A stretch of DNA of 64,000 nt from Minisyncoccia bacterium (GCA_049287305.1 JBAQFO010000014.1:64453-128452); one strand, 5' to 3'. Shown: positions 1 through 56,559, counted from the stretch's first letter. The notes: a model not told the origin generated them from the letters alone. A program made the numbers and translations.

Positions 1-1697
1 TTAACTTTTATGAAAAAATAAAAGTTCCTCCGCCCACATTTTGCCATTTATGCAGAGCCGAAAGGCGTTTTAGTTATAGAAATGAAAGAAAACTTTTCAA
101 GGTAAAAGACGCTTTCACGGGAAAAGAAATTCTATCTACTTACCCAACTGAAAGTGGCAGAAATATAATCACCAGAGACACATGGCTTGGCGACAGCTGG
201 GACGCGATGGATTACGGCATGGATGTGGATTTTTCCAGACCATTTTGGGAGCAAATACATGAGCTTGAAATGAAAGTCCCGATGTATAACTATAATGTTA
301 TAAAAATGATAAACAGTCCTTATGCTTTTAATGCCACAGGGTTGAAGAACAGCTATCTCGTAGTAAATTCTAGTTACTCCGAAGATTGCATGTTCGGCAA
401 CGCAATTGACTATTGTAAGGATTGTGTAGACAACTCTCATATCCAGGAAACCGAAAGATGTTATGAATGTTTCTGGCTGCGCAAATGCTATCAATGTTAT
501 TTTACGATAATGTCATGGGACTCAAGGAATTTATGGTTTTCTAGAGATTGCGGAGGTTGCAGTGATTGTTTCGGGTGTGTTAATTTGCGCCAATCATCCT
601 ATTGTATTTTCAACAAGCAATATACGAAAGAAGAATATGAGAAAGAGATAGAAAAGATGAAACTTGATACCTCTTCAGGCATTAAAGAGGCGCGAGAAAA
701 AGTCAGAGCTTTTTGGCAAACTCAAATAACAAGGCATCAGCAAGGTGTAAGAAATTTAAACTCAACCGGTTCTTATGTAACGGACAGCAAGAATGTAAAA
801 GATAGCTATCTAGTGAGAGAAAGTGAAAATTTAAAATATTGCCAGTACTTACAAGTTCCCAGCAGTAAGGACAATTACGATGTTGCTAACTGGGGCCAGA
901 ATATTGAATTATGCTACGAAACGATAGAGTGCGGAGAAAATTCTTATAATAATAAATTTTCTAGAAATTGCTGGCCATCATGCCGAAACATAGAGTACGG
1001 CGTCCACCTTTTTAGCTCCTCTGATTGTTTTGGCTGCGTAGGTCTGAAGAAGAAACAATATTGTATCTTGAATAAGCAGTATACCAAAGAAGAATATGAG
1101 GAGTTGGTGTCAAAAATAAGAAAGCACATGGAAGATATGCCTTATATTGATTCGCGGGGAATTATTTATAAATATGGGGAATTTTTTCCTATTGAGCTTT
1201 CGCCTTTTGGGTATAACAATACTCTCTCTATTCAGCATTTTGACCTTACAAAAGAAGAAGCAGAAGGTAAGGGATATACTTGGATCGAGTCAGAGAAAGG
1301 GGAATATGTTATTACCATGAAAGCCGACGAGTTGCCTGATGCGATAGAAGATATTGCCGATTCTATTGTAAAAGAAGTTATAGAATGTGAAAAATGCCAG
1401 CGAGCTTATCGTATACTAGAAAACGAATTTATTTTCTTGAAAAAAGAAAATTTACCTCTTCCACGATTATGCAGCGAATGCAGACATGAGCGTCGTATAA
1501 GTGATAGACTAAAGTTGTTTTTATACGAGCGAACCTGCATGTGTGCCGGGGTTACGGACGAAACTGGCAAATATCAAAATACTGTCCAGCATGCGCACAG
1601 AAGCTCCGCCTGTTCGGAAAAATTTAAAACCGGATATTCGGGTGAGCGCCCCGAAATAGTTTATTGCGAAAAGTGCTATCAGCAGGAAGTGTATTAA
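1..1697 (+). CDS. Cysteine-rich multi-zinc-ribbon paralog family member 1 (5' end truncated by window edge; about 20 aa missing)
   Basis: Continuous reading frame from position 3 (NFYEKIKVPPPTFCHLCR...). Shares internal repeats C..C..CFGCV.L+.K.YCI.NKQYTKEEYE (x2), MPYIDSRG..YKYGEFFP..SPFGYN, and the C-terminal C..C..YxI..NE..F.K...LPLPR.C..CRH ... EFETSYAP.RPEIVYCEKCYQQEVY with ORFs at 2759, 4498, 34967, 37574 and 63426(-). Confidence 0.8.
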   Translation, partial: NFYEKIKVPPPTFCHLCRAERRFSYRNERKLFKVKDAFTGKEILSTYPTESGRNIITRDTWLGDSWDAMDYGMDVDFSRPFWEQIHELEMKVPMYNYNVIKMINSPYAFNATGLKNSYLVVNSSYSEDCMFGNAIDYCKDCVDNSHIQETERCYECFWLRKCYQCYFTIMSWDSRNLWFSRDCGGCSDCFGCVNLRQSSYCIFNKQYTKEEYEKEIEKMKLDTSSGIKEAREKVRAFWQTQITRHQQGVRNLNSTGSYVTDSKNVKDSYLVRESENLKYCQYLQVPSSKDNYDVANWGQNIELCYETIECGENSYNNKFSRNCWPSCRNIEYGVHLFSSSDCFGCVGLKKKQYCILNKQYTKEEYEELVSKIRKHMEDMPYIDSRGIIYKYGEFFPIELSPFGYNNTLSIQHFDLTKEEAEGKGYTWIESEKGEYVITMKADELPDAIEDIADSIVKEVIECEKCQRAYRILENEFIFLKKENLPLPRLCSECRHERRISDRLKLFLYERTCMCAGVTDETGKYQNTVQHAHRSSACSEKFKTGYSGERPEIVYCEKCYQQEVY

Positions 1698-2386
1698 ATT
1701 CTATTAACCGCGCGGTAAGTAGCCACTATGGCGGCGGTTTCTCCTCGTAGGGTTAGGGAACCAAGAGAGGCGACTCGGTAGCCTGCTTTTTTTGCAAGTG
1801 CTACTTCTGCTTCAGTAAATCCGCCTTCTGGTCCTATAAAGATATTTACAGTTTTCACATTTTTATTTTGCGAATATGATTCGCCACCGAGGTGGAAGAT
1901 AGTCTTTTCTTCTGCTTCCGGATTATTCTTTAGCGCGTCTTCAAATTTTAAAATAGGGGACAGGGTAGGGACTACGCTTCTTCCTGATTGTTCGCTCGCT
2001 TCCCGGATAATTTTTATGAGGCGTTCGGTATTTAATCCGGTTTTGACAGTCCGCTCGGTAATTATTGGAGTAATGTTTGAAACTCCCGTTTCAACCGCTT
2101 TTTGAACAGCCAGTTCAAAATTTTCTTTCTTTAATATCGCTAAATATAAACTTACTTTTGTTTCGGTTTCTTCCAAGTGTATAATTTTCTCCATACCTAC
2201 AGAAATACTCTTCGGAGACATGTCTAAAATTGTAGCTTCTGCTACACCGCCTTTACCATCTCCCAAAATTATTCTATTTCCAATTTCCAGCCTCAAAACA
2301 CCCTTTATTTGCTTGATATTTTCTGGGTTGGTAATTTTCAGCTCTTTTTTTGACAAATTAAAATCTCCAATAAATCTATGTAATCT
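1694..2386 (-). CDS. rsmE: 16S rRNA (uracil1498-N3)-methyltransferase RsmE (SPOUT family)
   Basis: N-terminal MRLHRF..., C-terminal IFIGPEGGFTEAE...SLG..TLR.ETAA motif typical of RsmE. The ORF track extends to 2404; the internal MRLHRF start at 2386 is more likely. Confidence 0.7.
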   Translation of the reverse strand, partial: RLHRFIGDFNLSKKELKITNPENIKQIKGVLRLEIGNRIILGDGKGGVAEATILDMSPKSISVGMEKIIHLEETETKVSLYLAILKKENFELAVQKAVETGVSNITPIITERTVKTGLNTERLIKIIREASEQSGRSVVPTLSPILKFEDALKNNPEAEEKTIFHLGGESYSQNKNVKTVNIFIGPEGGFTEAEVALAKKAGYRVASLGSLTLRGETAAIVATYRAVNRI

Positions 2387-2447
2387 CATGTTTACATAAT
2401 ACACCCGAAATGTTAAAATAAAAAGTAGTAAATAGTTTCAGATATCA

Positions 2448-2465
2448 TTCTAAAGTTCGTTAGAA
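2448..2465. promoter_or_regulatory. Palindromic operator-like site 1, TTCTAAagttcgTTAGAA (6-6-6 inverted repeat), 17 nt upstream of the ArsR-type gene start
   Basis: Perfect 6-bp inverted arms seen directly. A near-identical copy occurs at 2726-2743. Both are followed by (t/c)at(t)AGAATA. Confidence 0.4.
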
Positions 2466-2481
2466 TTATAGAATATATAAT

Positions 2482-2754
2482 ATGAAAAAATCAAACCGAG
2501 CATTAGAAAGAATTATAAAAGGTTTTGCCAGCTATAGGAGATTACAAATACTAGAACTTTTGAAAAAAGAGCCGGAATTATCCTTGCAGGAAATTTCTGA
2601 AAGGGTTAATTCTGATTTCAAAAATATCTCCTCTCATATTGGTAAAATGGCAATTGCTGGTTTGTTGATGAAGCGCAGTGATGCACATTCAGTAAGACAC
2701 AAATTAACTAAAAGAGGAATTAATGTTCTTAAGTTCGTTAGAACATTAGAATAA
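2482..2754 (+). CDS. ArsR/SmtB-family winged-helix transcriptional regulator
   Basis: 90 aa. SYRRLQILELLKKEPELSLQEISERVNSDFKNISSHIGKMAIAGLL matches the ArsR HTH pattern (L..RL.IL..L...ELS..EI......S.HL..L..AGL). No canonical metal-sensing ELCVCD motif seen. Confidence 0.7.
   Translation: MKKSNRALERIIKGFASYRRLQILELLKKEPELSLQEISERVNSDFKNISSHIGKMAIAGLLMKRSDAHSVRHKLTKRGINVLKFVRTLE
2726..2743. promoter_or_regulatory. Palindromic operator-like site 2, TTCTTAagttcgTTAGAA, overlapping the 3' end of the ArsR-type gene and 16 nt upstream of the Cys-rich paralog 2 start
   Basis: Second copy of the 18-bp motif (17/18 identical to the site at 2448-2465) with the same downstream AGAATA. Confidence 0.4.
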
Positions 2755-2758
2755 AAAA

Positions 2759-4495
2759 ATGGAACAAGAAACAAAAAACTGTCAAAATTGCAAAAAAGAT
2801 TTCATTATAGAGTTCGAGGACTTTAACTTTTACGAGAAAATAAAGGTGCCTCCGCCTACTTTTTGTCCGGAATGCAGAATGACCTCAAGAATGATCTGGA
2901 GAAATGAGCGCTCGCTATACAAACGAGACTGCGATTTCTGTAAAAAGAGTATTATTTCAGTATATTCAAAGGACGCAAATTTTCCTGTTTATTGTTATGA
3001 ATGCTGGTGGGGTGATAATTGGGATCCCAGAGAATATGGACAAGATTACAATTTTTCTAAAGTTTTTTTTGAGCAATTACTTGAGTTATCTACGAAAGTA
3101 CCGCGTCAAGCTCTCGGCGTTATTAGTAATTTTAATAGTCCATATTTAAATTATGCTTGGCATAGCAAGAACAGCTATATGTGTTTTGATCTCGGTTACG
3201 GGGAAAATGTTCTATATTCAAATGCTTGTCATTACCTGAAAGATTCTTCAGATAATAGCTACTGTAAAAAACTTGACCTCTGTTATGAGTGTGCAGATAG
3301 TCAGGAATCAAGTATGTCAGATACCCTTGAAAAATGTAAAAATTGCCTAGATTCTTCTTTTCTTTTTAATTGCAAAAGCTGCTCCTCTTGTATTCTTTGT
3401 TCTAATTTAACTAGCAAGCAGTATTGTATTTTAAATAAACAGTATACAAAAGAAGAATATGAAAAGATAAAAAAAGATTATATCGATGGCAGTTTTGCAA
3501 AGAGGGAAAGCACTGCTAAGTTATTTAAACAATTAAAAATAGAATCAATTCAGAGAGAAAACAATAATGTTCAGGTAAAAAACTGTACAGGAGATAATAT
3601 TTGGAGTAGCGATAATTGTAAAAAATCTTTTAATGTTTTCAAATCTCAAAATTGTAAATTCGTGAATGACATTGATAGCAGTTTAAAGGATAGTATGGAT
3701 TTAAGTAATGCAGCAGAAGGAGAACTTATGTATTACAGCACTTCAGCTAGCGGTAGAAGCCTATTTTTTAATGTTTTTATCTCGTCCTCCTTCAATATAT
3801 TTTATTCAATCTTATGTCCTAACAATAACAACAATTTGTTTGCATGCATTGGCTTGCGAAACAAAAGTTATTGCATATTAAACAAACAGTACACAAAAGA
3901 AGAATACGAAGAGCTTATACCTAAAATTAAAAAACATATGGACGAAATGCCATATATTGATTCTAGGGGTCTTGTATATAAATATGGGGAATTTTTCCCA
4001 AGAGAATTCTCACCATTTTCTTACAACGAAACAGTAGCTCAAGAAAACTTTCCGCTCAACAGAGACGAAGCCATAAATCAAGGTTATAAATGGAAAGATA
4101 AGGATGCCCGAAATTATGCCGTAGAAATCATGAATGAAAATATCCCTGATAATATTAAAGATGCAACTGATGACGTTATAGGTAAAGTTATAGAATGTAA
4201 AAACAAAGGAGAAAACAGCGAACAATGCACAGAAGCGTTCAAAATTATCGAGCAGGAGTTTTATTTTTATAAGAGAATGAATTTACCTTTACCTCGTTTT
4301 TGCCCCAATTGTAGACACCACGAAAGGTTAGGAAAAAGAAACCCCATGAAACTCTGGAAAAGAGGATGCATGTGCGAAAAAGAAAATCATATGCACGGCT
4401 CAATTAAATGTGAAATCGAATTTGAGACAAGTTATGCTCCCGACCGACCAGAGATAATTTACTGTGAAAAGTGCTATCAGCAGGAAGTTTACTAA
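2759..4495 (+). CDS. Cysteine-rich multi-zinc-ribbon paralog family member 2
   Basis: 578 aa. N-terminal C.NC..F.IE.EDFNFYEKIKVPPPTFCPECR...RNE..LY.R.C.FCKK zinc-ribbon module; two internal C..C..C..C..L..K.YCILNKQYTKEEYE repeats; C-terminal module ending EFETSYAPDRPEIIYCEKCYQQEVY. Starts 5 nt after the ArsR stop. Confidence 0.85.
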   Translation: MEQETKNCQNCKKDFIIEFEDFNFYEKIKVPPPTFCPECRMTSRMIWRNERSLYKRDCDFCKKSIISVYSKDANFPVYCYECWWGDNWDPREYGQDYNFSKVFFEQLLELSTKVPRQALGVISNFNSPYLNYAWHSKNSYMCFDLGYGENVLYSNACHYLKDSSDNSYCKKLDLCYECADSQESSMSDTLEKCKNCLDSSFLFNCKSCSSCILCSNLTSKQYCILNKQYTKEEYEKIKKDYIDGSFAKRESTAKLFKQLKIESIQRENNNVQVKNCTGDNIWSSDNCKKSFNVFKSQNCKFVNDIDSSLKDSMDLSNAAEGELMYYSTSASGRSLFFNVFISSSFNIFYSILCPNNNNNLFACIGLRNKSYCILNKQYTKEEYEELIPKIKKHMDEMPYIDSRGLVYKYGEFFPREFSPFSYNETVAQENFPLNRDEAINQGYKWKDKDARNYAVEIMNENIPDNIKDATDDVIGKVIECKNKGENSEQCTEAFKIIEQEFYFYKRMNLPLPRFCPNCRHHERLGKRNPMKLWKRGCMCEKENHMHGSIKCEIEFETSYAPDRPEIIYCEKCYQQEVY

Positions 4496-4497
4496 AT

Positions 4498-6216
4498 ATG
4501 AAAACCGAAACAAAAAATTGTCAAAATTGTAAAAAAGACTTCACTATAGAGCCGGAAGATTTTAACTTTTATGAAAAAATAAAAGTTCCCCCACCAACAT
4601 TTTGTCCGGAATGCAGACTTATGCGTCGTATGACCTGGCGCAATGAACGTACTTTACATAGAAATAAATGTGCTAAAACTGGCAAAAGTTTAATAAGTTG
4701 TTTTTCTGCAGAATCTCCATTTACCGTTTACGAGAGAGATATTTGGTGGGGAGATGAATGGGATCCGACAGGATATGGAATAGAATATGATTTTGAAAAA
4801 CCATTTTTTGCTCAAATTCGCGAATTATTAGAAAAAGTGCCTCACCCAAATCTGTTCATTGGAAAGTGTGTAAATACTTCTTACGGTAATCATATTGGTG
4901 AATTTAGAAATTCATATCTTATATCTGCATCTTGGGGAGGAGATAATATAGCATATGGGTCTCGTTGCAATTACTGCAAAGATTCGATGGATATGTATAT
5001 AACTACTAACTCTGAATTTTGTTATGGTGATATTTCTTCAAATAAATGTTACGAAACTTTCTTCTCTCAGAACGCAGATTCTTGTACGAGCTCATATTTT
5101 CTTTATGATTGTAAAAACTGTATAAATTGCTTCGGTTGCACATCACTTCGCGATAAGTCTAATTGTATGTGGAATGTTCAATATACGAGAGAAGAATATA
5201 ATGAAAAATTAAAAGAATTAGATATTGGTGATTTTGAAAAGTTTAAAAAGATAAAAGAGAAGTTCGAAAAATTTAAATTAAATGCTGTCAGAAGATTTGC
5301 AAATATCACGAACTCAACTAATGTTTCTGGGGATGATATTTCTCATGCAGATAATTCTCAATCTTGCTTTGGTGTCTTTGAAGAAATAAAAAATAATAAA
5401 TTCTTAATGAATGCTTTTCGTATCAAGGATAGTTATGATGGCTATGGTGTTGGCATTGGAGAATTGATATATGAAGCTTTAGATTCTGGTCTTAATGCAT
5501 ATCGGCAACTTTTTGCATTTATAAATTGGGAATGTCTCAATGCTGAATATTCTTTCAACTGTCATGGATGTAACAATATTTTCGGTTGTGTCGGTCTTCG
5601 CAAGAAGAATTACTGCATTTTTAATAAACAATATTCTAAAGAAGAATTTTTAAAACTTCGTGAACAAATTATTGAGCACATGGATAAGATGCCATACATT
5701 GATAAAAAGAAGCGAGAGTATAAATATGGAGAATTTTTCCCGACAGAAATTTCTCCGTTTGGATACAATGAGACTATTGCACAGGATTATTTTCCTCTTT
5801 CTAAAGAAGAAATTTCTAATAATGGTTATAATTGGATAGAACGAGAAAAACCTGAATACCAAGCAACTTCTTTATCTAAAGATTTACCTAATCACATAAA
5901 ATATGCTACAGAAGATATATTAAACCTAAGTATAGAATGTGAATTTTGTAAAAGGCCTTATAAAATAATCCAAAATGAATATATATTTTTAAAAAGGTTT
6001 GGTCTGCCATTGCCGAGAGCTTGTTTCGAATGTAGGCACCAAGAACGATTTAAGAAAGTTAATCCTCCAGAGCTTTGGCACAGATCTTGTATGTGCAATA
6101 AAGAAGGTCATATACACGAATTAACTAAATGCGAAGTTGAATTCGAAACCTCGTATGCTCCCGACAGACCCGAGATTGTCTACTGCGAAAAGTGTTATCA
6201 GCAGGAAGTTTACTGA
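4498..6216 (+). CDS. Cysteine-rich multi-zinc-ribbon paralog family member 3
   Basis: Same family. N-terminal region is about 80% nucleotide-identical to paralog 2, then diverges; C-terminal ...EFETSYAPDRPEIVYCEKCYQQEVY. ATG at 4498 (3 nt after the paralog 2 stop) preferred over the ORF-track start 4471, which overlaps the upstream gene. Confidence 0.85.
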   Translation: MKTETKNCQNCKKDFTIEPEDFNFYEKIKVPPPTFCPECRLMRRMTWRNERTLHRNKCAKTGKSLISCFSAESPFTVYERDIWWGDEWDPTGYGIEYDFEKPFFAQIRELLEKVPHPNLFIGKCVNTSYGNHIGEFRNSYLISASWGGDNIAYGSRCNYCKDSMDMYITTNSEFCYGDISSNKCYETFFSQNADSCTSSYFLYDCKNCINCFGCTSLRDKSNCMWNVQYTREEYNEKLKELDIGDFEKFKKIKEKFEKFKLNAVRRFANITNSTNVSGDDISHADNSQSCFGVFEEIKNNKFLMNAFRIKDSYDGYGVGIGELIYEALDSGLNAYRQLFAFINWECLNAEYSFNCHGCNNIFGCVGLRKKNYCIFNKQYSKEEFLKLREQIIEHMDKMPYIDKKKREYKYGEFFPTEISPFGYNETIAQDYFPLSKEEISNNGYNWIEREKPEYQATSLSKDLPNHIKYATEDILNLSIECEFCKRPYKIIQNEYIFLKRFGLPLPRACFECRHQERFKKVNPPELWHRSCMCNKEGHIHELTKCEVEFETSYAPDRPEIVYCEKCYQQEVY

Positions 6217-6240
6217 TTTTTATGGTAAAATAACCTATAT

Positions 6241-7737
6241 ATGCCCAAGCCGAATCGAGTGCAAATAATAAAATATGGGCCACCACCGCCAGAGCTGCCT
6301 GTTTTCGGCAAAGTTAAGCCCGAAGAATGCTCTTTCATTGGACGCACGAATTATGTGGCTTCTCTTGAAGAAAAAAAGTTCGTTTTCGGAATCAAAAGAG
6401 TAGACCGCCGCAGGCACCTATATATCATTGGAAAGTCGGGTGTAGGTAAGACCAAACTTCTCGAGCTCATGATTCGACAAGACGTGTCCTACGGGCATGG
6501 ACTATGTTTAATTGACCCGCACGGAGACGTGATAGACGCAATGCTGGATTATATACCGAAGGAGCGAATTGAGGATGTTTGTATTATCGACCCATCCGAT
6601 ATTGATTTTCCGGCGTCCTTCAATCCTTTGGCGAACGTTGACCCCATGTTTAAATTCCAGTTAACGCAAGGGTTGATAGAAGTTTTTCAAAAACAGTTCG
6701 GAGCCAACTGGACGCCCCGCCTGGAGCACGTTTTTCGTTTTACTTGTCTCGCGCTCTTGGACTACCCGCATGCGACCATGCGTGGGATGATATCCATGCT
6801 AACCGACCGAAACTACAGACAGAAAGTTGTGGAATACATTACTGATGACATGGTTAAAAGATTCTTTGCCATAGAATTTGCCGACTGGTCCGAGAAATTT
6901 GATACAGATGCGATTATTCCGTTGGTGAACAAACTCGGGCAATTCCTATCAGACCCGCTTCTTAGAAACATTTTCGGACAGAAACAAAACAAAATTGATA
7001 TCAGTAAATTAATGAATGAGAGAAAAATTATTTTCATTAATCTTTCCAAGGGACGCCTTGGAGAAGAGAATTCCTCATTTCTTGGTTCCATATTTTTAAC
7101 AAAGATAAAACAGGCGGGTATGGAGCGGGCGGCTATCCCGGAAGCTGAACGTAAAGATTTTTATCTTTACGTGGATGAGTTCCAAAACGTCGTGACTCAG
7201 ACTTTTGAGAACATCCTCTCTGAGGCTCGCAAATACGGACTTAATCTTACAATGGCGCATCAATATGTAGGACAGATAATACCTAAAGTTCACCAGGCGG
7301 TGCTAGGTAACTGCGGAAGCATCATTACTTTTCGAATCGGAGGTGAAGATGCAGTGAAAATGAAGCCGGAATTTGCGCCATTGTTTGACGTTAAAGATAT
7401 GATAAATCTAGCCGTGGGAGAGATTTATATAAAGATGACTATTGATGGCGAATCTTACGATCCATTTTCAGCAGAAACTCTGATGGTTCTTCCGGCTACG
7501 CATCCATCTTACAGACAGGAAATAATTGATGCTTCGCATAGAAAATACTCCATACCGAAAGGAGACGCGGCCAAGCTTATTGCCGAAGAAGAAGCAACCA
7601 TAATCAGAAGCTCCGAAGAGAAAGCCATAATAGAAGGAAGGAATAAAACAAAACCCCAAGGACCAGAAGGAGACACAAATTCTTCGGAAGAAAATTCCAA
7701 ATCTCGGACTTCACAAGAGGCGGAGCCTATGATATAA
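6241..7737 (+). CDS. Soluble TraD/VirD4/TrwB-like (type IV coupling protein-like) P-loop ATPase
   Basis: Walker A HLYIIGKSGVGKTKLL, CLIDPHGD, Walker B YLYVDEFQNV, no N-terminal TM segments. Acidic/Ser-rich C-terminal tail. Confidence 0.7.
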   Translation: MPKPNRVQIIKYGPPPPELPVFGKVKPEECSFIGRTNYVASLEEKKFVFGIKRVDRRRHLYIIGKSGVGKTKLLELMIRQDVSYGHGLCLIDPHGDVIDAMLDYIPKERIEDVCIIDPSDIDFPASFNPLANVDPMFKFQLTQGLIEVFQKQFGANWTPRLEHVFRFTCLALLDYPHATMRGMISMLTDRNYRQKVVEYITDDMVKRFFAIEFADWSEKFDTDAIIPLVNKLGQFLSDPLLRNIFGQKQNKIDISKLMNERKIIFINLSKGRLGEENSSFLGSIFLTKIKQAGMERAAIPEAERKDFYLYVDEFQNVVTQTFENILSEARKYGLNLTMAHQYVGQIIPKVHQAVLGNCGSIITFRIGGEDAVKMKPEFAPLFDVKDMINLAVGEIYIKMTIDGESYDPFSAETLMVLPATHPSYRQEIIDASHRKYSIPKGDAAKLIAEEEATIIRSSEEKAIIEGRNKTKPQGPEGDTNSSEENSKSRTSQEAEPMI

Positions 7738-7784
7738 ATAGCCGGGAGAGTCGGAGTTTTTGGCATTAACTACAATTTAAATAT

Positions 7785-8879
7785 ATGAAACAAGACTACT
7801 ACGAAATTCTAGGCATAAATAAAGGCGCATCTAAGGATGAAATCAAAAAAGCCTTTTATAAATTGGCTCATAAATATCACCCTGATAAAAAAGGAGGGGA
7901 TGAGACCAAGTTCAAGCAGGTAAACGAAGCTTATCAAGTGCTCTCTGACGATTCTAAACGCTCTAAATATGACCAATTCGGAGCGGGGTTTGAGAACATG
8001 GGACAGCAAGGAGGATACGGACGGGGACAAGGAGGAGGCTTTGAAGGATTTGACTTCAGTAATTTTTCTGGAGGCTTTCAAAATGGGGGAGCGGATTTTG
8101 ACCTTAATGACATATTTAGTGACTTTTTTGGTGGTGGAATGGGGAGAGCGCAAGCTCGTCGGGGCCGGGATATTTCCACGGAGATTCAAATTTCTTTTGC
8201 GGACTCTGTCTTTGGAACTACCAGAAAAATTTTAATCACAAAAACTTCCAAGTGTATTACTTGCAATGCTACGGGGGCGAAAGCAGGCTCCAAGATGGAA
8301 ACTTGCAAGCACTGCAACGGACAAGGAAAAATTCACGAACAAAAAAGAACTATCTTCGGCACAATAGCCAATACCAAGCTTTGCGAAGTTTGCCTGGGTT
8401 CCGGGGAAGTTCCAAAAGAGCCTTGTGAAAAATGTAAAGGCAAAGGAGTATTGCGCCGAGAGGAAGAAGTTTCTATCGTTATACCAGGAGGAATTCGAGA
8501 CGGAGAGATGGTGCGCATGTCTGGGCTCGGGGAAGCAATTTCAAAAGGAACATCCGGAGACTTGTATATAAAAATAAACGTCGCTTCCCACCCGGTCTTT
8601 AAGCGTGACGGTAATGATTTGGTTATGAATTTAAATTTAAAACTTTCCGATGCGCTTCTGGGGACCAAGTACCCAATACAAACCTTAGACGGAGAAATAG
8701 AAGTTACTATTCCCGAAGGAGTAACCATTAATGAAGTTCTCCGCGTGCGGGGCAAGGGCGTGCCAATAAGTAAATCAAAAAGAGGGGATTTGCTTATTAA
8801 ACTTAATATCAAGCTTCCGGAAAAATTAAACCGCAAATCTAGAGAAATGATAGAAGAGCTCAAAAAAGAAGGAATATAA
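7785..8879 (+). CDS. dnaJ: Chaperone DnaJ
   Basis: J-domain [31 protein letters not shown], Gly/Phe-rich linker, four C..C.G.G zinc-finger repeats, C-terminal substrate-binding domains. Confidence 0.9.
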
Positions 8880-34427: not shown

Positions 34428-34983
34428 TGACTTAGAAAAAAAAATAGAAGCCATCCTTTTTTGGAAAGGGGAGCCGGTCGCACTGAAAAAACTCGGTGAA
34501 ATATTGAAAGTTTCGCCGGGGGAAGTGCTGGAAGCTATTTCGCATTTGAAAGTAACTCTGGAGAGCCGGGGAATAGCGCTTCAGGAAAATAACGAAGAAT
34601 TTACATTGGGCACGGCGCCCGAGTTTTCTGACCTTTTTGAGAATTTACAAAAAGAAGAACTGAACAAAGACCTTTCCAAGGCGGCGCTTGAAACATTGTC
34701 CGTCGTGCTTTATAAAAACGGCGCAAGCCGAGCGGAGATTGATTATATTCGAGGAGTAAACTCAAGCTTCTCTTTACGAGCTCTGTCTATCCGAGGGCTG
34801 GTGGAAAAAACCCTGGATCCGAAAGACAGCAGAAGATTTATCTACAAACCAAGCTTTGACCTCTTGTCGTTTATGGGCGTGAAATCGGTGCAAGAGCTAC
34901 CGGGATGGGAAGAAGTTAATGCTTCCGTAGAAATTGCCGCGAAAAACTTAGAAGAAGAAACTAATAATGAAAGTTCAGGTTAA
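34402..34983 (+). CDS. scpB: Segregation and condensation protein B
   Basis: IEAILFWKGEPVALKKLGEIL...tandem winged-helix, overlaps scpA. Confidence 0.8.
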   Translation: MWLKLLMNNDLEKKIEAILFWKGEPVALKKLGEILKVSPGEVLEAISHLKVTLESRGIALQENNEEFTLGTAPEFSDLFENLQKEELNKDLSKAALETLSVVLYKNGASRAEIDYIRGVNSSFSLRALSIRGLVEKTLDPKDSRRFIYKPSFDLLSFMGVKSVQELPGWEEVNASVEIAAKNLEEETNNESSG

Positions 34984-36646
34984 AACTTGTGTTAACTGCC
35001 AACTAGACTTTACGATAGAGCCGGATGATTTCGGATTTTACGAAAAAATAAATGTGCCTGCACCTACATCCTGCCCAGATTGTAGACTGCAAAGACGTCT
35101 GGCGTGGAGAAATGATCTTACTTTTTATAATCGCAAATGCGATGTGTGTAAAAAAGAGATAATTTCACTTTATCACCAAGATAAACCACTGACTGTTTAT
35201 TGCAATAAGTGCTGGTGGAGCGACAAGTGGGACCCGAAAAGTTACGGCCAAGAGATAGATTTTTCAAGGCCATTTTTTGAGCAGTTTAGAGAATTGCAGG
35301 ACCGAGTGCCGTTGCTCGCAATGTTCAATGATGATGGAGTAGGAAGCGTAAACTGTGAATATACGCAAAATACCACCTTTGCAAAAAATTGCTACATGGG
35401 AGCAATGACCTGGAAAAGCGAGGACGTTATGTATTACTATCATATTGCCGGACCAGAAACGAGAGATGTTGTGGATCCTTTAGATATATTCAACTATTCT
35501 CAAATTATTTATGATTCAATCTTTCTGGAACACTGCTACAATTGCAAGAATTGTTATTACTCAACTGGTCTTACTGATTGTAATTTTTGCTATGACTGCA
35601 AAGGTTGCTCCGATTGTTTTATGTCGGTAAATCTGAGACAGAAAAAATATTGTATTTTAAATAAACAATACACAAAAGAAGAATACAAAAAAATAATAAA
35701 AAGCTACCGGTTGGATACTTTTTCGGGTGTGGCGCGGGCTAAAAAAGAGTTTGCTGATTTTCTTTCTATGCAGATAAGAAGATTTGCAAATATTCGAAAT
35801 TCTGTTAGTTGTACTGGTGATGGAATATTTAATTGTAAGAATGTAAAAAATTCGATATTCGCTAGAGCCTGTGAAAATGTGCGATTTTTTTGGAGAGGCA
35901 ATGATGTTAAAGATAGTTACGACTTAACTCCGGCTGGGGAAACATCGGAGTGCTACGAAGGCCTAACTCCCGACCATGATTATCGCGTCCTATTCTCAAT
36001 CTACTCTTTAAAAAGCCAGGAATTGAGCTATGTAGAAAATTGCCATTCTTCCAAGCACCTATTTGGATGTGCGGGCATCAGGCATGGGCAGTATTCTATT
36101 TTAAATAAAGAGTATTCTAAAGAAGAATATTTCCAACTACGAGATAAGCTTATTAAACACATGAAAACTACGGGGGAGTATGGGGAATTTTTCCCAGGCT
36201 CAATGTCAAATTTTGGCTACAATGAAACAATGGCCCAAGATTATTTTCCTCTAACGAAAGAACAAGCTCTAGCTCGTGGCTTTAAATGGTGGGATAAGAT
36301 CCAAAAAACTCATGGGAAGGAAACGCTTTCCCACGATCAGATACCAGATTCAATTAACAATATTACTGATGCTATACTTGGAGAAGTGTTCGCGTGTCTT
36401 GAGTGTAAAAGAAATTACAAAATTATTAAAAATGAGTTCTTGTTCTACAAAAAACATTTAATACCTATACCTAGAAAATGTTTCTTTTGCAGGCATAGCG
36501 ATCGTATGAAGTTTGAGAATCCCTGTAAACTCTGGCACCGAAAATGTATGAACGAAGGGTGCATAAACGAATTTGAAACCAGCTATGCGCCAGAGCGGCC
36601 GGAAATAATTTACTGCGAAAGTTGTTATAACAAAGAAGTTTATTAG
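34967..36646 (+). CDS. Cysteine-rich multi-zinc-ribbon paralog family member 4
   Basis: 559 aa. TCVNCQLDFTIEPDDFGFYEKINVPAPTSCPDCRLQRRLAWRND..., internal CKGCSDCFMSVNLRQKKYCILNKQYTKEEY, C-terminal FETSYAPERPEIIYCESCYNKEVY. Overlaps the scpB stop by 17 nt. Confidence 0.85.
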   Translation: MKVQVKTCVNCQLDFTIEPDDFGFYEKINVPAPTSCPDCRLQRRLAWRNDLTFYNRKCDVCKKEIISLYHQDKPLTVYCNKCWWSDKWDPKSYGQEIDFSRPFFEQFRELQDRVPLLAMFNDDGVGSVNCEYTQNTTFAKNCYMGAMTWKSEDVMYYYHIAGPETRDVVDPLDIFNYSQIIYDSIFLEHCYNCKNCYYSTGLTDCNFCYDCKGCSDCFMSVNLRQKKYCILNKQYTKEEYKKIIKSYRLDTFSGVARAKKEFADFLSMQIRRFANIRNSVSCTGDGIFNCKNVKNSIFARACENVRFFWRGNDVKDSYDLTPAGETSECYEGLTPDHDYRVLFSIYSLKSQELSYVENCHSSKHLFGCAGIRHGQYSILNKEYSKEEYFQLRDKLIKHMKTTGEYGEFFPGSMSNFGYNETMAQDYFPLTKEQALARGFKWWDKIQKTHGKETLSHDQIPDSINNITDAILGEVFACLECKRNYKIIKNEFLFYKKHLIPIPRKCFFCRHSDRMKFENPCKLWHRKCMNEGCINEFETSYAPERPEIIYCESCYNKEVY

Positions 36647-37573: not shown

Positions 37574-39313
37574 ATGAAGGCAGAGACGAAACAATGCCAG
37601 AACTGCAAATCGGACTTTACTATTGAGCCGGACGATTTCGGGTTTTATGAGAAAATAAAAGTTCCTCTGCCTACATTCTGTCCGGATTGCAGAAGACAAA
37701 GGCGCTGGGCGTGGAGAAACAACATGTCCCTTTACAACCGCCAATGTGAATTATGCGGGAAGGGAGTCGTCTCTCTTTATCATCCAGATTCAGACCTTGT
37801 AGTTTATTGCAATAAATGCTGGTGGAGTGACAAATGGGATCCTAAAAGATATGGAGTAAATTATGATTTTTCCAGAACATTCTTTGCTCAATTCCGCGAG
37901 CTTGTAAGTAAGGTTCCCCATATGGCTATCGTAAATGATGATGGCATAGCCAGTTTAAATTGTGAATATACGCACGACTGGTGGTTCTCAAAAAATTGCT
38001 ATATGTGTTTTTCGGGGTGGTATGTGGAAAATGTGATATATAGTTTTTTCGTATTGAAGGGCAAGGATATTATGGATTGTATGAATATACGTTCGGAAAG
38101 CAATTGGATATACGACTGCACCCTGACAAGCTTGTCTTATAATTCAAAGTATTTAAATTACTGCCTCTCTTGCATTGATTCTCAATTTTTATATAACTGC
38201 ATTAATTGCAATAGTTGTTTCATGTGCGTAAATTTAACCAATAAAAAATATTATTTTAAAAACCGACAATACTCAAAAGAGGAGTATGAAAAAATTTTAG
38301 AAAGTTACCGGCTGGATACGTTTTCCGGAGTAGAAAAAGCCCGAAGAGAGTTTGATACATTTCGCCTGCCTTATCCCCGCCGATTCTTACATCTTTTTCG
38401 CACAGTAAATAGTGTCGGTGACATACTTTCCGATTCTAAAAATACAAAATACTGTTTTGTTACAAAAAATTCCGAGAATTGCAGATACAGCGAATACGCG
38501 GGAGACAAAAATAATCCGAACAAAGACTGCTATGACCTCACTCTGTGCGGAGGTGTGTCGGAGTGCTATGAAGGAGTTGTGTTGGACCATTCCCAATTGA
38601 ATCTTTTCGGACTCTTTTCGGTTAAAAGCCAGGACATACAATATAACCAGCATTGTCACAACTGCAAGCATGTTTTTGGGTGTGTCGGCCTTAGAAACGC
38701 GAGCTATTGTATTTTCAACAAGCAATACACAAAAGAAGAATATGAAAAACTTGTGCCACAAATAATAAAACACATGAATGAGATGCCTTACATGGACAAG
38801 GTCGGCAACGAATATCGCTACGGAGAATATTTTCCGGCTGAGCTTTCTTATTTTGGCTACAATGAATCTTCGGCAATGGAGCAATATCCGCTTACGAAAA
38901 CAGAAGCTATGGAAAAAGGTTTCAGGTGGCAGGATGAAACGCAGCGCACCATTGGGAAGGAAACTTTAAAACCGGAGAATATCCCGGAAGGTATCGAAGA
39001 AATAACAGATTCTGTCTTAAATGAGATATTGGCCTGCGTTGACTGCAAGAGAAACTACAAAATCATTCCCAACGAGCTTATATTTTATAAAAAAATGAAA
39101 ATTCCAATTCCGAGGAGGTGTTTTTATTGTCGTCACGAAGCAAGAGTTAAGAGGTGGAATCCTTTCAAGCTTTGGCACAGAGAATGCATGTGCGGTAAAG
39201 ACAATCATTTCCACGGAGAAGAGAACTGCACAGTGGAGTTTGAAACATCTTACGCGCCGGGCAGGCCGGAAATAGTGTATTGTGAAAAATGTTATCAGGC
39301 AGAGATGTATTAA
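37574..39313 (+). CDS. Cysteine-rich multi-zinc-ribbon paralog family member 5
   Basis: 579 aa. KQCQNCKSDFTIEPDDFGFYEKIKVPLPTFCPDCRRQRRWAWRNN..., C-terminal EFETSYAPGRPEIVYCEKCYQAEMY. Confidence 0.85.
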   Translation: MKAETKQCQNCKSDFTIEPDDFGFYEKIKVPLPTFCPDCRRQRRWAWRNNMSLYNRQCELCGKGVVSLYHPDSDLVVYCNKCWWSDKWDPKRYGVNYDFSRTFFAQFRELVSKVPHMAIVNDDGIASLNCEYTHDWWFSKNCYMCFSGWYVENVIYSFFVLKGKDIMDCMNIRSESNWIYDCTLTSLSYNSKYLNYCLSCIDSQFLYNCINCNSCFMCVNLTNKKYYFKNRQYSKEEYEKILESYRLDTFSGVEKARREFDTFRLPYPRRFLHLFRTVNSVGDILSDSKNTKYCFVTKNSENCRYSEYAGDKNNPNKDCYDLTLCGGVSECYEGVVLDHSQLNLFGLFSVKSQDIQYNQHCHNCKHVFGCVGLRNASYCIFNKQYTKEEYEKLVPQIIKHMNEMPYMDKVGNEYRYGEYFPAELSYFGYNESSAMEQYPLTKTEAMEKGFRWQDETQRTIGKETLKPENIPEGIEEITDSVLNEILACVDCKRNYKIIPNELIFYKKMKIPIPRRCFYCRHEARVKRWNPFKLWHRECMCGKDNHFHGEENCTVEFETSYAPGRPEIVYCEKCYQAEMY

Positions 39314-55176: not shown

Positions 55177-56559
55177 TTACTTTGAAGCGAGTTTTCCCGC
55201 AAGACCGACATAATTCAGCGGAGTAAAGGAAAGCAGTTCCTTTTTAATTTTTTCACTAACTTCCAACTTTGTTATAAATTCGTGAATATCCGAAAGCTCT
55301 ATTTTTTTACCTCGGGTTAAAGCCTTCAGTTTTTCATAAGGCATTTCCACTCCTTCCCGTCTTAGAATAGTCTGGATTGCTTCCGCCACAACTTCAGGGT
55401 GTTTTGCCAAGTCTTCTTTAATTTTTATTTCATTCACACTTATTTTCTCCAGTCCTTTCAGTAGATATTCGTAAGCAATCAAAGAGTGGGCAAAAGCTGT
55501 TCCAAAATTTCTTTGCACCGTGGAATCCGAAAGGTCTCGCTGAAGTCGGGAAATTGGCAGTTTGCGTCCAAAGAATTCAAACAAAGAGTTTGCAATTCCA
55601 AGGTTGCCCTCGCTGTTTTCAAACTTTATCGGGTTTACTTTGTGAGGCATGGTGGAAGAGCCTACGGCGCCCTCTGTGGGCTTTTGAACAACCCATTCAT
55701 CGCTTATGTATCGCCACATGTCCTGGTTTAACCCCATTAGGATTGTGTTGATTTTCCTCAAATTATCAAAGAGATCTATATAAGAATCATGGGGTTCAAT
55801 TTGAGTAGTATGCATATTGGCTTCCAGCTTTACGCCAAATTTTTTGTTCAAGCCGGAAATGAAATCTTTGCTGAATTTTATCCAATTTATATTCGGATAT
55901 GCCGCTACATGAGCGTTAAAGTTTCCGGTTGCTCCGTTTAATTTTGCGGATATTCCAACATTCTCAAGAATATTGGAATATCGTTTTAGACGTTCGGCAA
56001 ATACTTTCATCTCTTTGCCGAAAGTGGTAGGGCTTGCGCTCTGGCCATGGGTGCGGGCCAACATCGGAGTATTTTTGTGTTTTGCGGCCAGGGTATTCAG
56101 TTCTAAAATTATTTTATTTATTTTAGGTAAAACAACATCTTCCAAAGACTGAGAGAGCATTAAAGCATAAGATAAGTTGTTGGTATCTTCACTGGTTAAT
56201 CCGAAATGGATCCATTCCAAGGTATCCTTAAGTGACGTGCTTCCCAGTTTTTCTTTCATAAAATATTCCACTGCCTTCACGTCGTGGTCAGTCGCTTTTA
56301 TATTTTTATATCCCTTGGTTTCTATGTCGCTGATTATTTTTGCGTCGGTGTCTGACAGGGCATAAAGAGACCGGACAATTTTCTTTTCATTTTCGGATAA
56401 TTTTCGTAATTTTAGCTTCAGTTCGGATAAAGCGATAAAGTATTCCCCTTCTACTATAATCCTGTAACGCATTAACCCCTGCTCACTCATAAATGGTGAG
56501 AGAGCCGAAGCAGATTTTTCGTAGCGTCCATCTATGGGAGAAATTGAATTTAATGACAT
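55177..56559 (-). CDS. purB: Adenylosuccinate lyase
   Basis: SPIDGRYEK..., TSEDTNN, fumarate-lyase signature GSSTMPHKVNP. Confidence 0.85.
   Translation of the reverse strand: MSLNSISPIDGRYEKSASALSPFMSEQGLMRYRIIVEGEYFIALSELKLKLRKLSENEKKIVRSLYALSDTDAKIISDIETKGYKNIKATDHDVKAVEYFMKEKLGSTSLKDTLEWIHFGLTSEDTNNLSYALMLSQSLEDVVLPKINKIILELNTLAAKHKNTPMLARTHGQSASPTTFGKEMKVFAERLKRYSNILENVGISAKLNGATGNFNAHVAAYPNINWIKFSKDFISGLNKKFGVKLEANMHTTQIEPHDSYIDLFDNLRKINTILMGLNQDMWRYISDEWVVQKPTEGAVGSSTMPHKVNPIKFENSEGNLGIANSLFEFFGRKLPISRLQRDLSDSTVQRNFGTAFAHSLIAYEYLLKGLEKISVNEIKIKEDLAKHPEVVAEAIQTILRREGVEMPYEKLKALTRGKKIELSDIHEFITKLEVSEKIKKELLSFTPLNYVGLAGKLASK

Follow-up and report, generated by a model that had tools for sequence, protein, structure and literature searches.

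We analyzed a window of 64,000 nucleotides (nt) from a metagenome-assembled genome of the Paceibacteria/Minisyncoccia, within the Candidate Phyla Radiation (CPR), in which a small ArsR/SmtB-like regulator gene is associated with two copies of a palindromic element of 30 base pairs (bp), one just upstream of its start codon and one embedded in its last codons. The contig is also present in SRR28062879. The gene order is cysteine (Cys)-rich paralog 1, RsmE (minus strand), the ArsR-like regulator, Cys-rich paralogs 2 and 3, an ATPase resembling type IV coupling proteins (T4CP), and DnaJ. The original prediction, made from the DNA alone, had read the regulator, both downstream Cys-rich genes, and the ATPase as one autoregulated operon that responds to a metal or redox cue. 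Open reading frame (ORF) calling returned the predicted coordinates for these four genes, and the predicted short spacing held, while the gap sizes were revised to 4 nt (2755-2758), 2 nt (4496-4497), and 24 nt (6217-6240). The features of the locus are as follows.

<1-1697, plus strand: Cys-rich paralog 1, with its 5' end outside the window
1694-2404, minus strand: RsmE, between Cys-rich paralog 1 and the regulator cassette
2445-2474, plus strand: upstream operator-like copy, 30 bp (TCATTCTAAAGTTCGTTAGAATTATAGAAT), 44.0 bits against a matrix from homologous loci
2482-2754, plus strand: ArsR/SmtB-like winged-helix regulator, 90 amino acids (aa), with Pfam, NCBIfam, and PDB profile matches
2723-2752, plus strand: embedded operator-like copy, 30 bp (ATGTTCTTAAGTTCGTTAGAACATTAGAAT), 33.3 bits against the same matrix
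2759-4495, plus strand: Cys-rich paralog 2, 578 aa with 35 Cys, directly behind the embedded copy
4498-6216, plus strand: Cys-rich paralog 3, 572 aa with 32 Cys, without an operator of its own
6223-6231, plus strand: extended -10-like motif TGGTAAAAT, 9 nt before the ATPase ATG
6241-7737, plus strand: soluble T4CP-like P-loop ATPase (T4CP-B), 498 aa, with Pfam T4CP domains
7785-8879, plus strand: DnaJ, 3' of the ATPase gene

The duplication at the heart of the locus is precise. Two 18-mers, TTCTAAAGTTCGTTAGAA at 2448-2465 and TTCTTAAGTTCGTTAGAA at 2726-2743, differ by a single mismatch, and AGAATA, predicted to follow each, was found 4 nt downstream in both cases. At up to three mismatches, these two were the only matches in 64 kb, compared to a mean of 0.11 in shuffled sequence, where two matches were reached in 1 of 100 shuffles, and the likeness of the two copies runs over 42 nt at 76% identity. 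The second palindrome, which had been placed in the intergenic junction, lies instead inside the last ten codons of the regulator, where it encodes ..VLKFVRTLE-stop. In the upstream copy, the half-sites are the hexamers ATTCTA, TAGAAT, and TAGAAT, and the copy ends 7 nt before the regulator ATG; we propose that it is an operator overlapping the regulator promoter. Between the embedded copy and the ATG of Cys-rich paralog 2 lie 6 nt; the last T of this copy doubles as the first base of the regulator stop codon, and the copy is a candidate operator/promoter of the downstream gene.

Scanning metagenomes for the regulator, we obtained 80 loci, 59 of them distinct, and found that 58 of the 59 carry the 30-bp element twice, just upstream of the regulator start and within the final 30 coding bases of the gene. 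Its consensus, nnATTCTAAnnTTC(T/G)(A/T)TAGAA(T/C)nnTAGAAT, is a composite palindrome with hexamer half-sites at 8-bp spacing, and the median distance to the start codon was 7 nt for the upstream copy and 9 nt from the embedded copy to the next gene. Upon comparing 65 homologs, we found synonymous codons to be fixed in the embedded copy at Leu83 (CTA, 64/65), Phe85 (TTC, 64/65), Val86 (GTT, 64/64), Arg87 (AGA, 65/65), and Glu90 (GAA, 63/64), whereas Phe codons outside it were preferentially TTT and the Leu, Val, and Arg codons elsewhere in the gene mostly showed a codon entropy of 1.4-2.5 bits (lowest at Arg10, 0.61). Synonymous fixation was thus restricted to the embedded copy. The two copies were also more alike within a locus (25.1 of 30 positions) than between loci (22.9 of 30), a likeness that none of 20,000 permutations reached, and variable columns matched within loci at 0.57-0.88 versus an expected 0.27-0.50. 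A divergent regulator subfamily (~45% identical; L005, L036, and L043) carries a different palindrome, CATTTTGCAAAATG, again both upstream and in its C-terminal codons (..SFCKMF..). The codon fixation, the within-locus likeness, and the subfamily with a different site all speak for selection on the embedded copy at the DNA level.

Copies of the element also occur without the regulator gene. Solo copies stand right before Cys-rich genes in four loci (L010, L040, L045, and L049), where the ATG overlaps TAGAATG, and before an ABC-transporter-like gene in another (L016), and we propose that these solo operators mark further members of a regulon. Six loci carry further copies 460-1000 nt upstream of the regulator. 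One locus (L084, 2940-6804) holds four operator copies, and its three consecutive Cys-rich genes each have a 30-mer 9 nt before the ATG that is identical to the copy at the 3' end of the regulator, implying tandem duplication of [operator + Cys-rich gene] units. In the window itself, a matrix scan at 12 bits or more returned one further match:

55950-55981, no strand assigned: third operator-like site, 32 bp (ATATTCCAATATTCTTGAGAATGTTGGAATAT), 30.8 bits on the minus and 22.6 bits on the plus strand

This near-perfect palindrome lies inside a purB-like ORF (55177-56559, minus strand), where it encodes ..RYSNILENVGIS.. in a variable segment, and it was absent from a 72%-identical PurB ortholog (L089). 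In L086 and L093, a regulator cassette immediately precedes purD, and cassettes also lie at a distance of a few kilobases from purB in L086, L088/L089, and L091.

What follows the regulator varies widely. Among 49 assessable distinct loci, the next gene belonged to at least 19 unrelated families: FAD-linked oxidases (11), the Cys-rich family (7), YdjM-like proteins (5), a nucleotidyltransferase-like family and a family of unknown 217-aa proteins (4 each), PurD, alpha/beta-hydrolases, NUDIX proteins, and S51 peptidases (2 each), and HD_4, a metallophosphoesterase, and others (1 each). The regulator therefore appears to belong to a portable autoregulated cassette rather than to an operon dedicated to Cys-rich proteins and the ATPase. 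We also considered the regulator and Cys-rich paralog 2 as a conserved pair and rejected it, as the closest homologs of paralog 2 (P0002, P0008, and P0011; 67-71% identical) have no adjoining regulator. A comparison of two loci with common flanks (a Cys-rich gene, a 325-aa gene, and T4CP-B) speaks to portability. In the occupied locus (L043), a subfamily-2 regulator lies between two operators; in the empty one (L067), there is a single operator, whose left flank is that of the upstream copy and whose right flank still reads ..FCKMLE-stop. This solo site is consistent with the product expected of a deletion by recombination between the repeats, or with a pre-insertion state. The 325-aa gene (MEQETKILKNKKEFFIFPTVPFHFDGTFHKPSHFPD..) sits between the subfamily-2 operator and T4CP-B, at 8956-9990 in L043 and 1531-2508 in L067. 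In a third locus (L005), the other regulator subfamily lies upstream of an ortholog of Cys-rich paralog 3.

It is conceivable, though we hold it with considerable reserve, that the [operator-repressor-operator] unit is a mobile plug-in cassette of the Paceibacteria, moved by recombination at its own operator (Campbell-type insertion and deletion at solo operators) and recruiting arbitrary accessory genes. This mobility is read from the one occupied/empty pair and from the diversity of contexts. If it were true, expanding Cys-rich paralogs would join one regulon as tandem [operator + gene] units, and the overlap of site and coding sequence would ensure the joint inheritance of the regulator and its output promoter.

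By profile, the regulator appears ArsR/SmtB-like. It matched NCBIfam NF033788 (E 5.5e-11), exceeded the cut-offs of Pfam HVO_A0114, HTH_24, and HTH_27, and its family profile found HlyU (3jth, E 1.8e-8) and CadC (E 9.5e-4) in the PDB, so that HlyU-type proteins are the nearest relatives of solved structure by this measure. A protein search returned 312 homologs, mostly of 90 aa and with a conserved C terminus, ..ILKFVRxLE. The regulator contains no Cys, and the family consensus, likewise free of Cys, has no alpha3N Cys motif (e.g., ELCVCDL), no alpha5 site, and no DxHx10HxxE-type motif; its only conserved His residues are at positions 18, 52, and 73. The metal or redox cue once proposed is hence unsupported, because the protein lacks both Cys and the ArsR/SmtB metal-site motifs, and an inducing signal, judged from the protein sequence, would be neither thiol-based nor based on a canonical metal site.

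From these comparisons we consider it probable that the 90-aa protein is an autorepressor supplied with its own output site. Palindromes are the kind of site that ArsR dimers bind, and one or more regulator dimers would bind the ~30-bp composite palindrome, ATTCTA-nn-(A)TTC(T/G)(A/T) followed by TAGAA(T/C)-nn-TAGAAT. The regulator, when bound at the first copy, ~7 nt from the ATG, would block the promoter of its own gene, and the transcript from this promoter would have no leader or a very short one. The second copy, within the last nine codons (I/V-L-K-F-V-R-x-L-E-stop) and ~6-9 nt before the next start codon, would place whatever gene follows under the same repressor, here Cys-rich paralog 2. 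Paralog 3, 2 nt further on, is probably carried on the same transcript. The whole [operator-regulator-operator] unit would be portable; related species differ in whether they carry it at a given locus. As to the promoters, the right-hand TAGAAT half-sites look like -10 hexamers and stand about as far from the ATG as does the -10-like motif in front of the ATPase gene, suggesting leaderless or very short-leader messenger RNAs. The sequence comparisons show the element and its conservation, the constraint on it as DNA, the co-variation of the copies, their placement relative to start codons, and the variable cargo; from these patterns we infer protein-DNA binding, repression, promoter identity, and leaderless transcription. 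The autoregulated repressor with a duplicated operator, as first predicted, is thereby backed comparatively by its presence in 58 of 59 loci, the codon fixation, the co-variation of the copies, the divergent subfamily, and the solo copies, and its extension to control of paralog 2, and probably of paralog 3, is well supported at the level of sequence comparison.

Several observations weigh against this account. Conservation of the C-terminal amino acids is partly by construction, because the loci were retrieved with two peptide patterns, of which one was taken from the C terminus of the regulator; the codon-level fixation is unaffected, provided that the back-translated patterns were fully degenerate. 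Gene conversion, rather than selection for binding, could underlie the co-variation seen at flanking and spacer columns. Among the 58 embedded copies, 13 have TAGAAC in place of the first TAGAAT and 15 have TGGAAT as the last hexamer, so that assigning either hexamer as the -10 is tentative at best; a consistent -35 hexamer could not be placed upstream of either TAGAAT, and a generic promoter scan found 29 sites versus 28.5 in shuffles, that is, no excess. The regulator, furthermore, scores under the curated cut-offs of NCBIfam NF033788 (42.1 bits, cut-off 55) and of Pfam HTH_5 (20.0 bits, cut-off 22), and inspection for sensor sites found none in it, so that conditional induction is left without a known input.

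The ATPase gene at the end of the proposed operon appears to stand apart from the cassette. Its product carries the Walker A motif GKSGVGKT (residues 64-71) and exceeded the Pfam cut-offs for TrwB_AAD_bind (29.8 bits, cut-off 20.5), T4SS-DNA_transf (29.0, cut-off 20.1), DUF87 (HerA), and TraG-D_C, while scoring far under those of the NCBIfam conjugative equivalogs conju_CD1115 (54 versus 250) and SXT_TraD (52 versus 366). A hydropathy scan found no segment resembling an N-terminal transmembrane anchor (maximum 19-residue Kyte-Doolittle value, 1.02), phmmer found no match in the PDB, and the AlphaFold2 model, which drew on a shallow alignment of 30 sequences with 86-92% identity to the query, reached a predicted local distance difference test (pLDDT) score of 48, too low for comparing folds. 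The protein aligned with phrog_5156 of PHROG, a family of unknown function (E 3e-51, residues 37-461 on positions 392-818 of 824), and some phages therefore encode a larger protein ending in this ATPase domain. It also matched PADLOC mad8 (E 4e-14).

Across 80 species-level genomes, the ATPase was 84-93% identical, its Cys-rich neighbors being far less conserved (49-72% among the matches listed). The conserved order is T4CP-A (a ~45% identical paralog), zero to four Cys-rich genes with or without an opposite-strand RsmE, T4CP-B, and DnaJ, with T4CP-B preceding dnaJ in most loci. Querying these 80 species with ten window proteins, we recognized T4CP-A, Cys-rich genes, RsmE, DnaJ, and CysS as neighbors. 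In one locus (L162, 1736-10572), the neighbors are DnaK, T4CP-A, a Cys-rich gene, DnaJ, and CysS, with DnaK upstream of T4CP-A; that dnaK and dnaJ flank two T4CP-like ATPases at this locus may point to a function outside DNA transfer. No relaxase or VirB gene was called in L162, and no dedicated search of the loci for such genes was made. T4CP-A of this locus has 678 aa, a zf_Tbcl_2 match, and the conserved tail ..EVPEDVLRKILE-stop, and T4CP-B has the invariant tail ..EPMI-stop. A survey of Patescibacteria counted 5,713 VirD4 homologs in 2,918 genomes, with only 148 near virB4, and raised a possible exaptation of these homologs (PMC12102498); its ~two homologs per genome fit the T4CP-A/T4CP-B pair.

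Putative regulatory signals and gene neighborhoods also set the ATPase apart from the regulator. Of 78 orthologous loci, 42 had the pattern TGnTAnnnT within the 30 nt preceding the ATPase ATG, versus 41 of 1560 control windows (2.6%), and in 40 of these loci it ended 6-12 nt from the ATG regardless of the upstream gene, which was an opposite-strand RsmE in 15 species and the other T4CP paralog in 13. We propose that the motif at 6223-6231 is the ATPase gene's own promoter. As there is no terminator-like site in the 24-nt gap (6217-6240), read-through into the ATPase is possible. Just 3 of 80 species had a regulator homolog within 10 kb of the ATPase ortholog; of 80 regulator loci, only 3 contained a T4CP-like gene no farther than 7 kb away. 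The predicted membership of the ATPase in the regulated unit is not supported by these counts, and the expected co-occurrence of the two in related genomes fails. We propose that the ATPase is an independently promoted core gene that neighbors the cassette from outside. The impression given by annotation, that the TraD-like ATPase belongs to a mobile or inducible module, is thereby corrected: the gene is one of two that are chromosomal, T4CP-like, and very conserved, with soluble products. Base composition differs as well: the regulator and both Cys-rich genes behind it have a GC content of 30-33%, the ATPase gene one of 41-48%. Viewed along the window, GC is 27-36% across 2200-6200 (regulator and Cys-rich paralogs 2 and 3) and 39-48% in the ATPase and DnaJ (6200-8800) and most of the remainder; this low-GC segment is consistent with recent acquisition or with faster, AT-biased evolution.

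The Cys-rich proteins form a large family, of which the window holds at least six copies. Besides paralogs 1 to 3, these are:

34967-36646: Cys-rich paralog
37574-39313: Cys-rich paralog
63429 to beyond 64000, minus strand: Cys-rich paralog

Paralogs 2 and 3 are 46.7% identical (tblastn), and paralog 2 is identical to the NCBI hypothetical protein WAV15_03830. The shared architecture comprises ~570 aa with ~32-35 Cys, CxxC...CPxCR modules at both termini, and, around ..YCILNKQYTKEEYE.., an internal duplication. Clustered at 50% identity, the family has 5,326 representatives, of which 2,254 reach E <= 1e-30; lengths are uniform at ~550-600 aa. The proteins had no match in Pfam, NCBIfam, PHROGs, or PADLOC, and the AlphaFold2 model of paralog 2 (pLDDT 84, predicted template modeling score 0.83) gave no Foldseek match in the PDB with E below 4. 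Paralog 3 is probably co-transcribed with paralog 2, because the gap is 2 nt and it has no operator of its own; no matrix match of 12 bits or more was found near it. Orthologs of paralog 3 (76-77% identity) occupy the same locus in L005 and L043, and those of paralog 1 (64-78%) in L005, L006, L008, L030, L043, L049, L070, and L072. A Cys-rich gene was the immediate upstream neighbor of the ATPase in 36 of 69 species, one to four such genes lay between the two T4CP-like paralogs in 40 of 56, and their density was 0.94 per 10 kb around the T4CP pair versus 0.21 in regulator loci without T4CP (~4.5x). The T4CP neighborhood is thus a real hot-spot for the family. Copies in the window adjoin ScpAB, VanY, NUDIX, and pur genes as well as the ATPase, and CutA1 and pilus genes are further neighbors of the family. 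For the suggested functional link between Cys-rich proteins and the ATPase, the clustering speaks in favor and the scatter among housekeeping genes against, leaving it a weak lead.

Four other explanations can be set against an autorepressor with its own output site. The repeats could primarily be recombination (att-like) ends of a small mobile cassette, their within-locus likeness arising from insertion or gene conversion rather than from binding. Direct repeats do flank the regulator gene, the downstream cargo is highly diverse, the co-variation extends to flanking and spacer columns, regional GC is low, and the L067 solo site joins the upstream-left to the 3'-right flank with ..FCKMLE-stop kept. 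However, no recombinase or transposase is associated with the unit, solo copies and tandem [element + gene] units always lie a few nucleotides before start codons, and the element is an ArsR-type palindrome that differs between regulator subfamilies. Mobility and operator function are not mutually exclusive. We regard recombination as the primary role of the repeats as unlikely. The chances are poorer for a single induced operon of the regulator, Cys-rich paralogs 2 and 3, and the TraD-like ATPase, which would respond to a metal or redox signal and in which the ATPase and Cys-rich proteins would work jointly. All of its genes are co-directional with gaps of 2-24 nt, no terminator-like site separates paralog 3 from the ATPase, and the Cys-rich genes cluster beside the ATPase and between the T4CP paralogs. 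It is opposed by the rarity of regulator and ATPase as neighbors, by the -10-like motif that the ATPase keeps whatever lies upstream, by the difference in GC, by a regulator without Cys or an alpha3 or alpha5 metal motif, and by the varied genes that Cys-rich members adjoin elsewhere.

Even less probable, in our estimate, is a second operator with no promoter role, which would tighten autorepression by DNA looping with the first while the downstream gene is co-transcribed from the upstream promoter. Such a loop would suit two sites ~278 bp apart around a small gene followed by very short gaps, and auxiliary operators inside coding DNA are well established, as with lac O2 in lacZ and gal OI in galE. 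Yet the spacing of the copies ranges from ~268 to 291 bp with no helical phasing (10.5-bp pattern), embedded-type copies stand alone before genes that have no regulator upstream, and the geometry to the next start codon is conserved. To an element acting as RNA, with a hairpin at either end of the regulator messenger that affects stability, processing, termination, or start-codon occlusion, we give the smallest chance of the four. The copies fold at -9.5 and -8.2 kcal/mol (z-scores of -2.9 and -3.6 versus shuffles), and an RNA element would account for the fixed synonymous sites just as well. The stems, however, are A/U-rich and weak, with no T-tract terminator, and pair counts over 58 loci contain no informative compensatory changes, symmetric positions being either invariant or mismatched (a C-A pair at columns 7-26 in 13 upstream copies, and mismatches at columns 15-18 and 16-17 in every embedded copy). 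Moreover, most of the upstream copy would be untranscribed if TAGAAT is the -10, and solo copies overlap start codons.

The result that we find most interesting is the conserved full operator that appears to be embedded in the last codons of its repressor, which would yield a portable regulator-plus-output module. To our knowledge, almost nothing is known about transcriptional regulation in the CPR/Patescibacteria, and these bacteria cannot be grown alone. The element offers a concrete candidate regulon for the group: the site is delimited to 30 bp, the protein has 90 aa, and natural variants of the site, numbering in the dozens, change along with the protein. Nine final codons that double as operator/promoter of the next gene would be an unusually compact design; as regulator and output would be inseparable by recombination, it may explain how one small repressor came to stand before at least 19 unrelated accessory genes. 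In addition, the locus draws attention to a large Cys-rich family (more than 5,000 clusters), without annotation or a solved structural relative, that expands and contracts beside the T4CP pair. A search of the literature found nothing relevant on a patescibacterial ArsR operator or a Cys-rich CPR family.

Comparison with known systems brings out what is particular here. The ATPase resembles the coupling proteins VirD4, TraD, and TrwB in its apparent P-loop nucleoside triphosphatase domain, with TrwB_AAD_bind, T4SS-DNA_transf, and TraG-D_C matches in Pfam, but it differs in having no N-terminal membrane anchor, in scoring far below the conjugative equivalog models, in having no PDB sequence match, and in its core-gene conservation (84-93%) and dnaK/dnaJ setting. 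By analogy only, the cassette resembles repeat-bounded gene cassettes such as those of integrons: a short unit with similar imperfect palindromes at its ends, found in many genomic contexts and with occupied and empty sites in related genomes. Unlike these, no integrase or attI was seen here, the unit carries a regulator rather than promoterless cargo, and one repeat lies inside coding sequence. As with lac O2 and gal OI, a putative repressor site inside an ORF duplicates a promoter-proximal operator; here, by contrast, it is the gene of the repressor itself that contains the internal site, at its very 3' end, and the site keeps a promoter-like distance to the next start, recurs solo before other genes, and shows no fixed phasing. 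A further parallel is with the ArsR/SmtB autorepressors (SmtB, CadC, and CzrA, and the non-metal HlyU and BigR), which our regulator resembles in being a small, apparently winged-helix and putatively dimeric protein with a conserved ..FANHRRLQIL.. region, and with which it shares a candidate imperfect inverted repeat over its own promoter region, and a gene adjoining the one it would control. It departs from them in its length of only 90 aa, its lack of Cys and of an alpha3N/alpha5 metal site, its scores below curated family cut-offs, and cargo genes unrelated to metal resistance, as well as in a site composed of four half-sites at 8-bp spacing, of which a second full copy is encoded in the regulator's own last nine codons.

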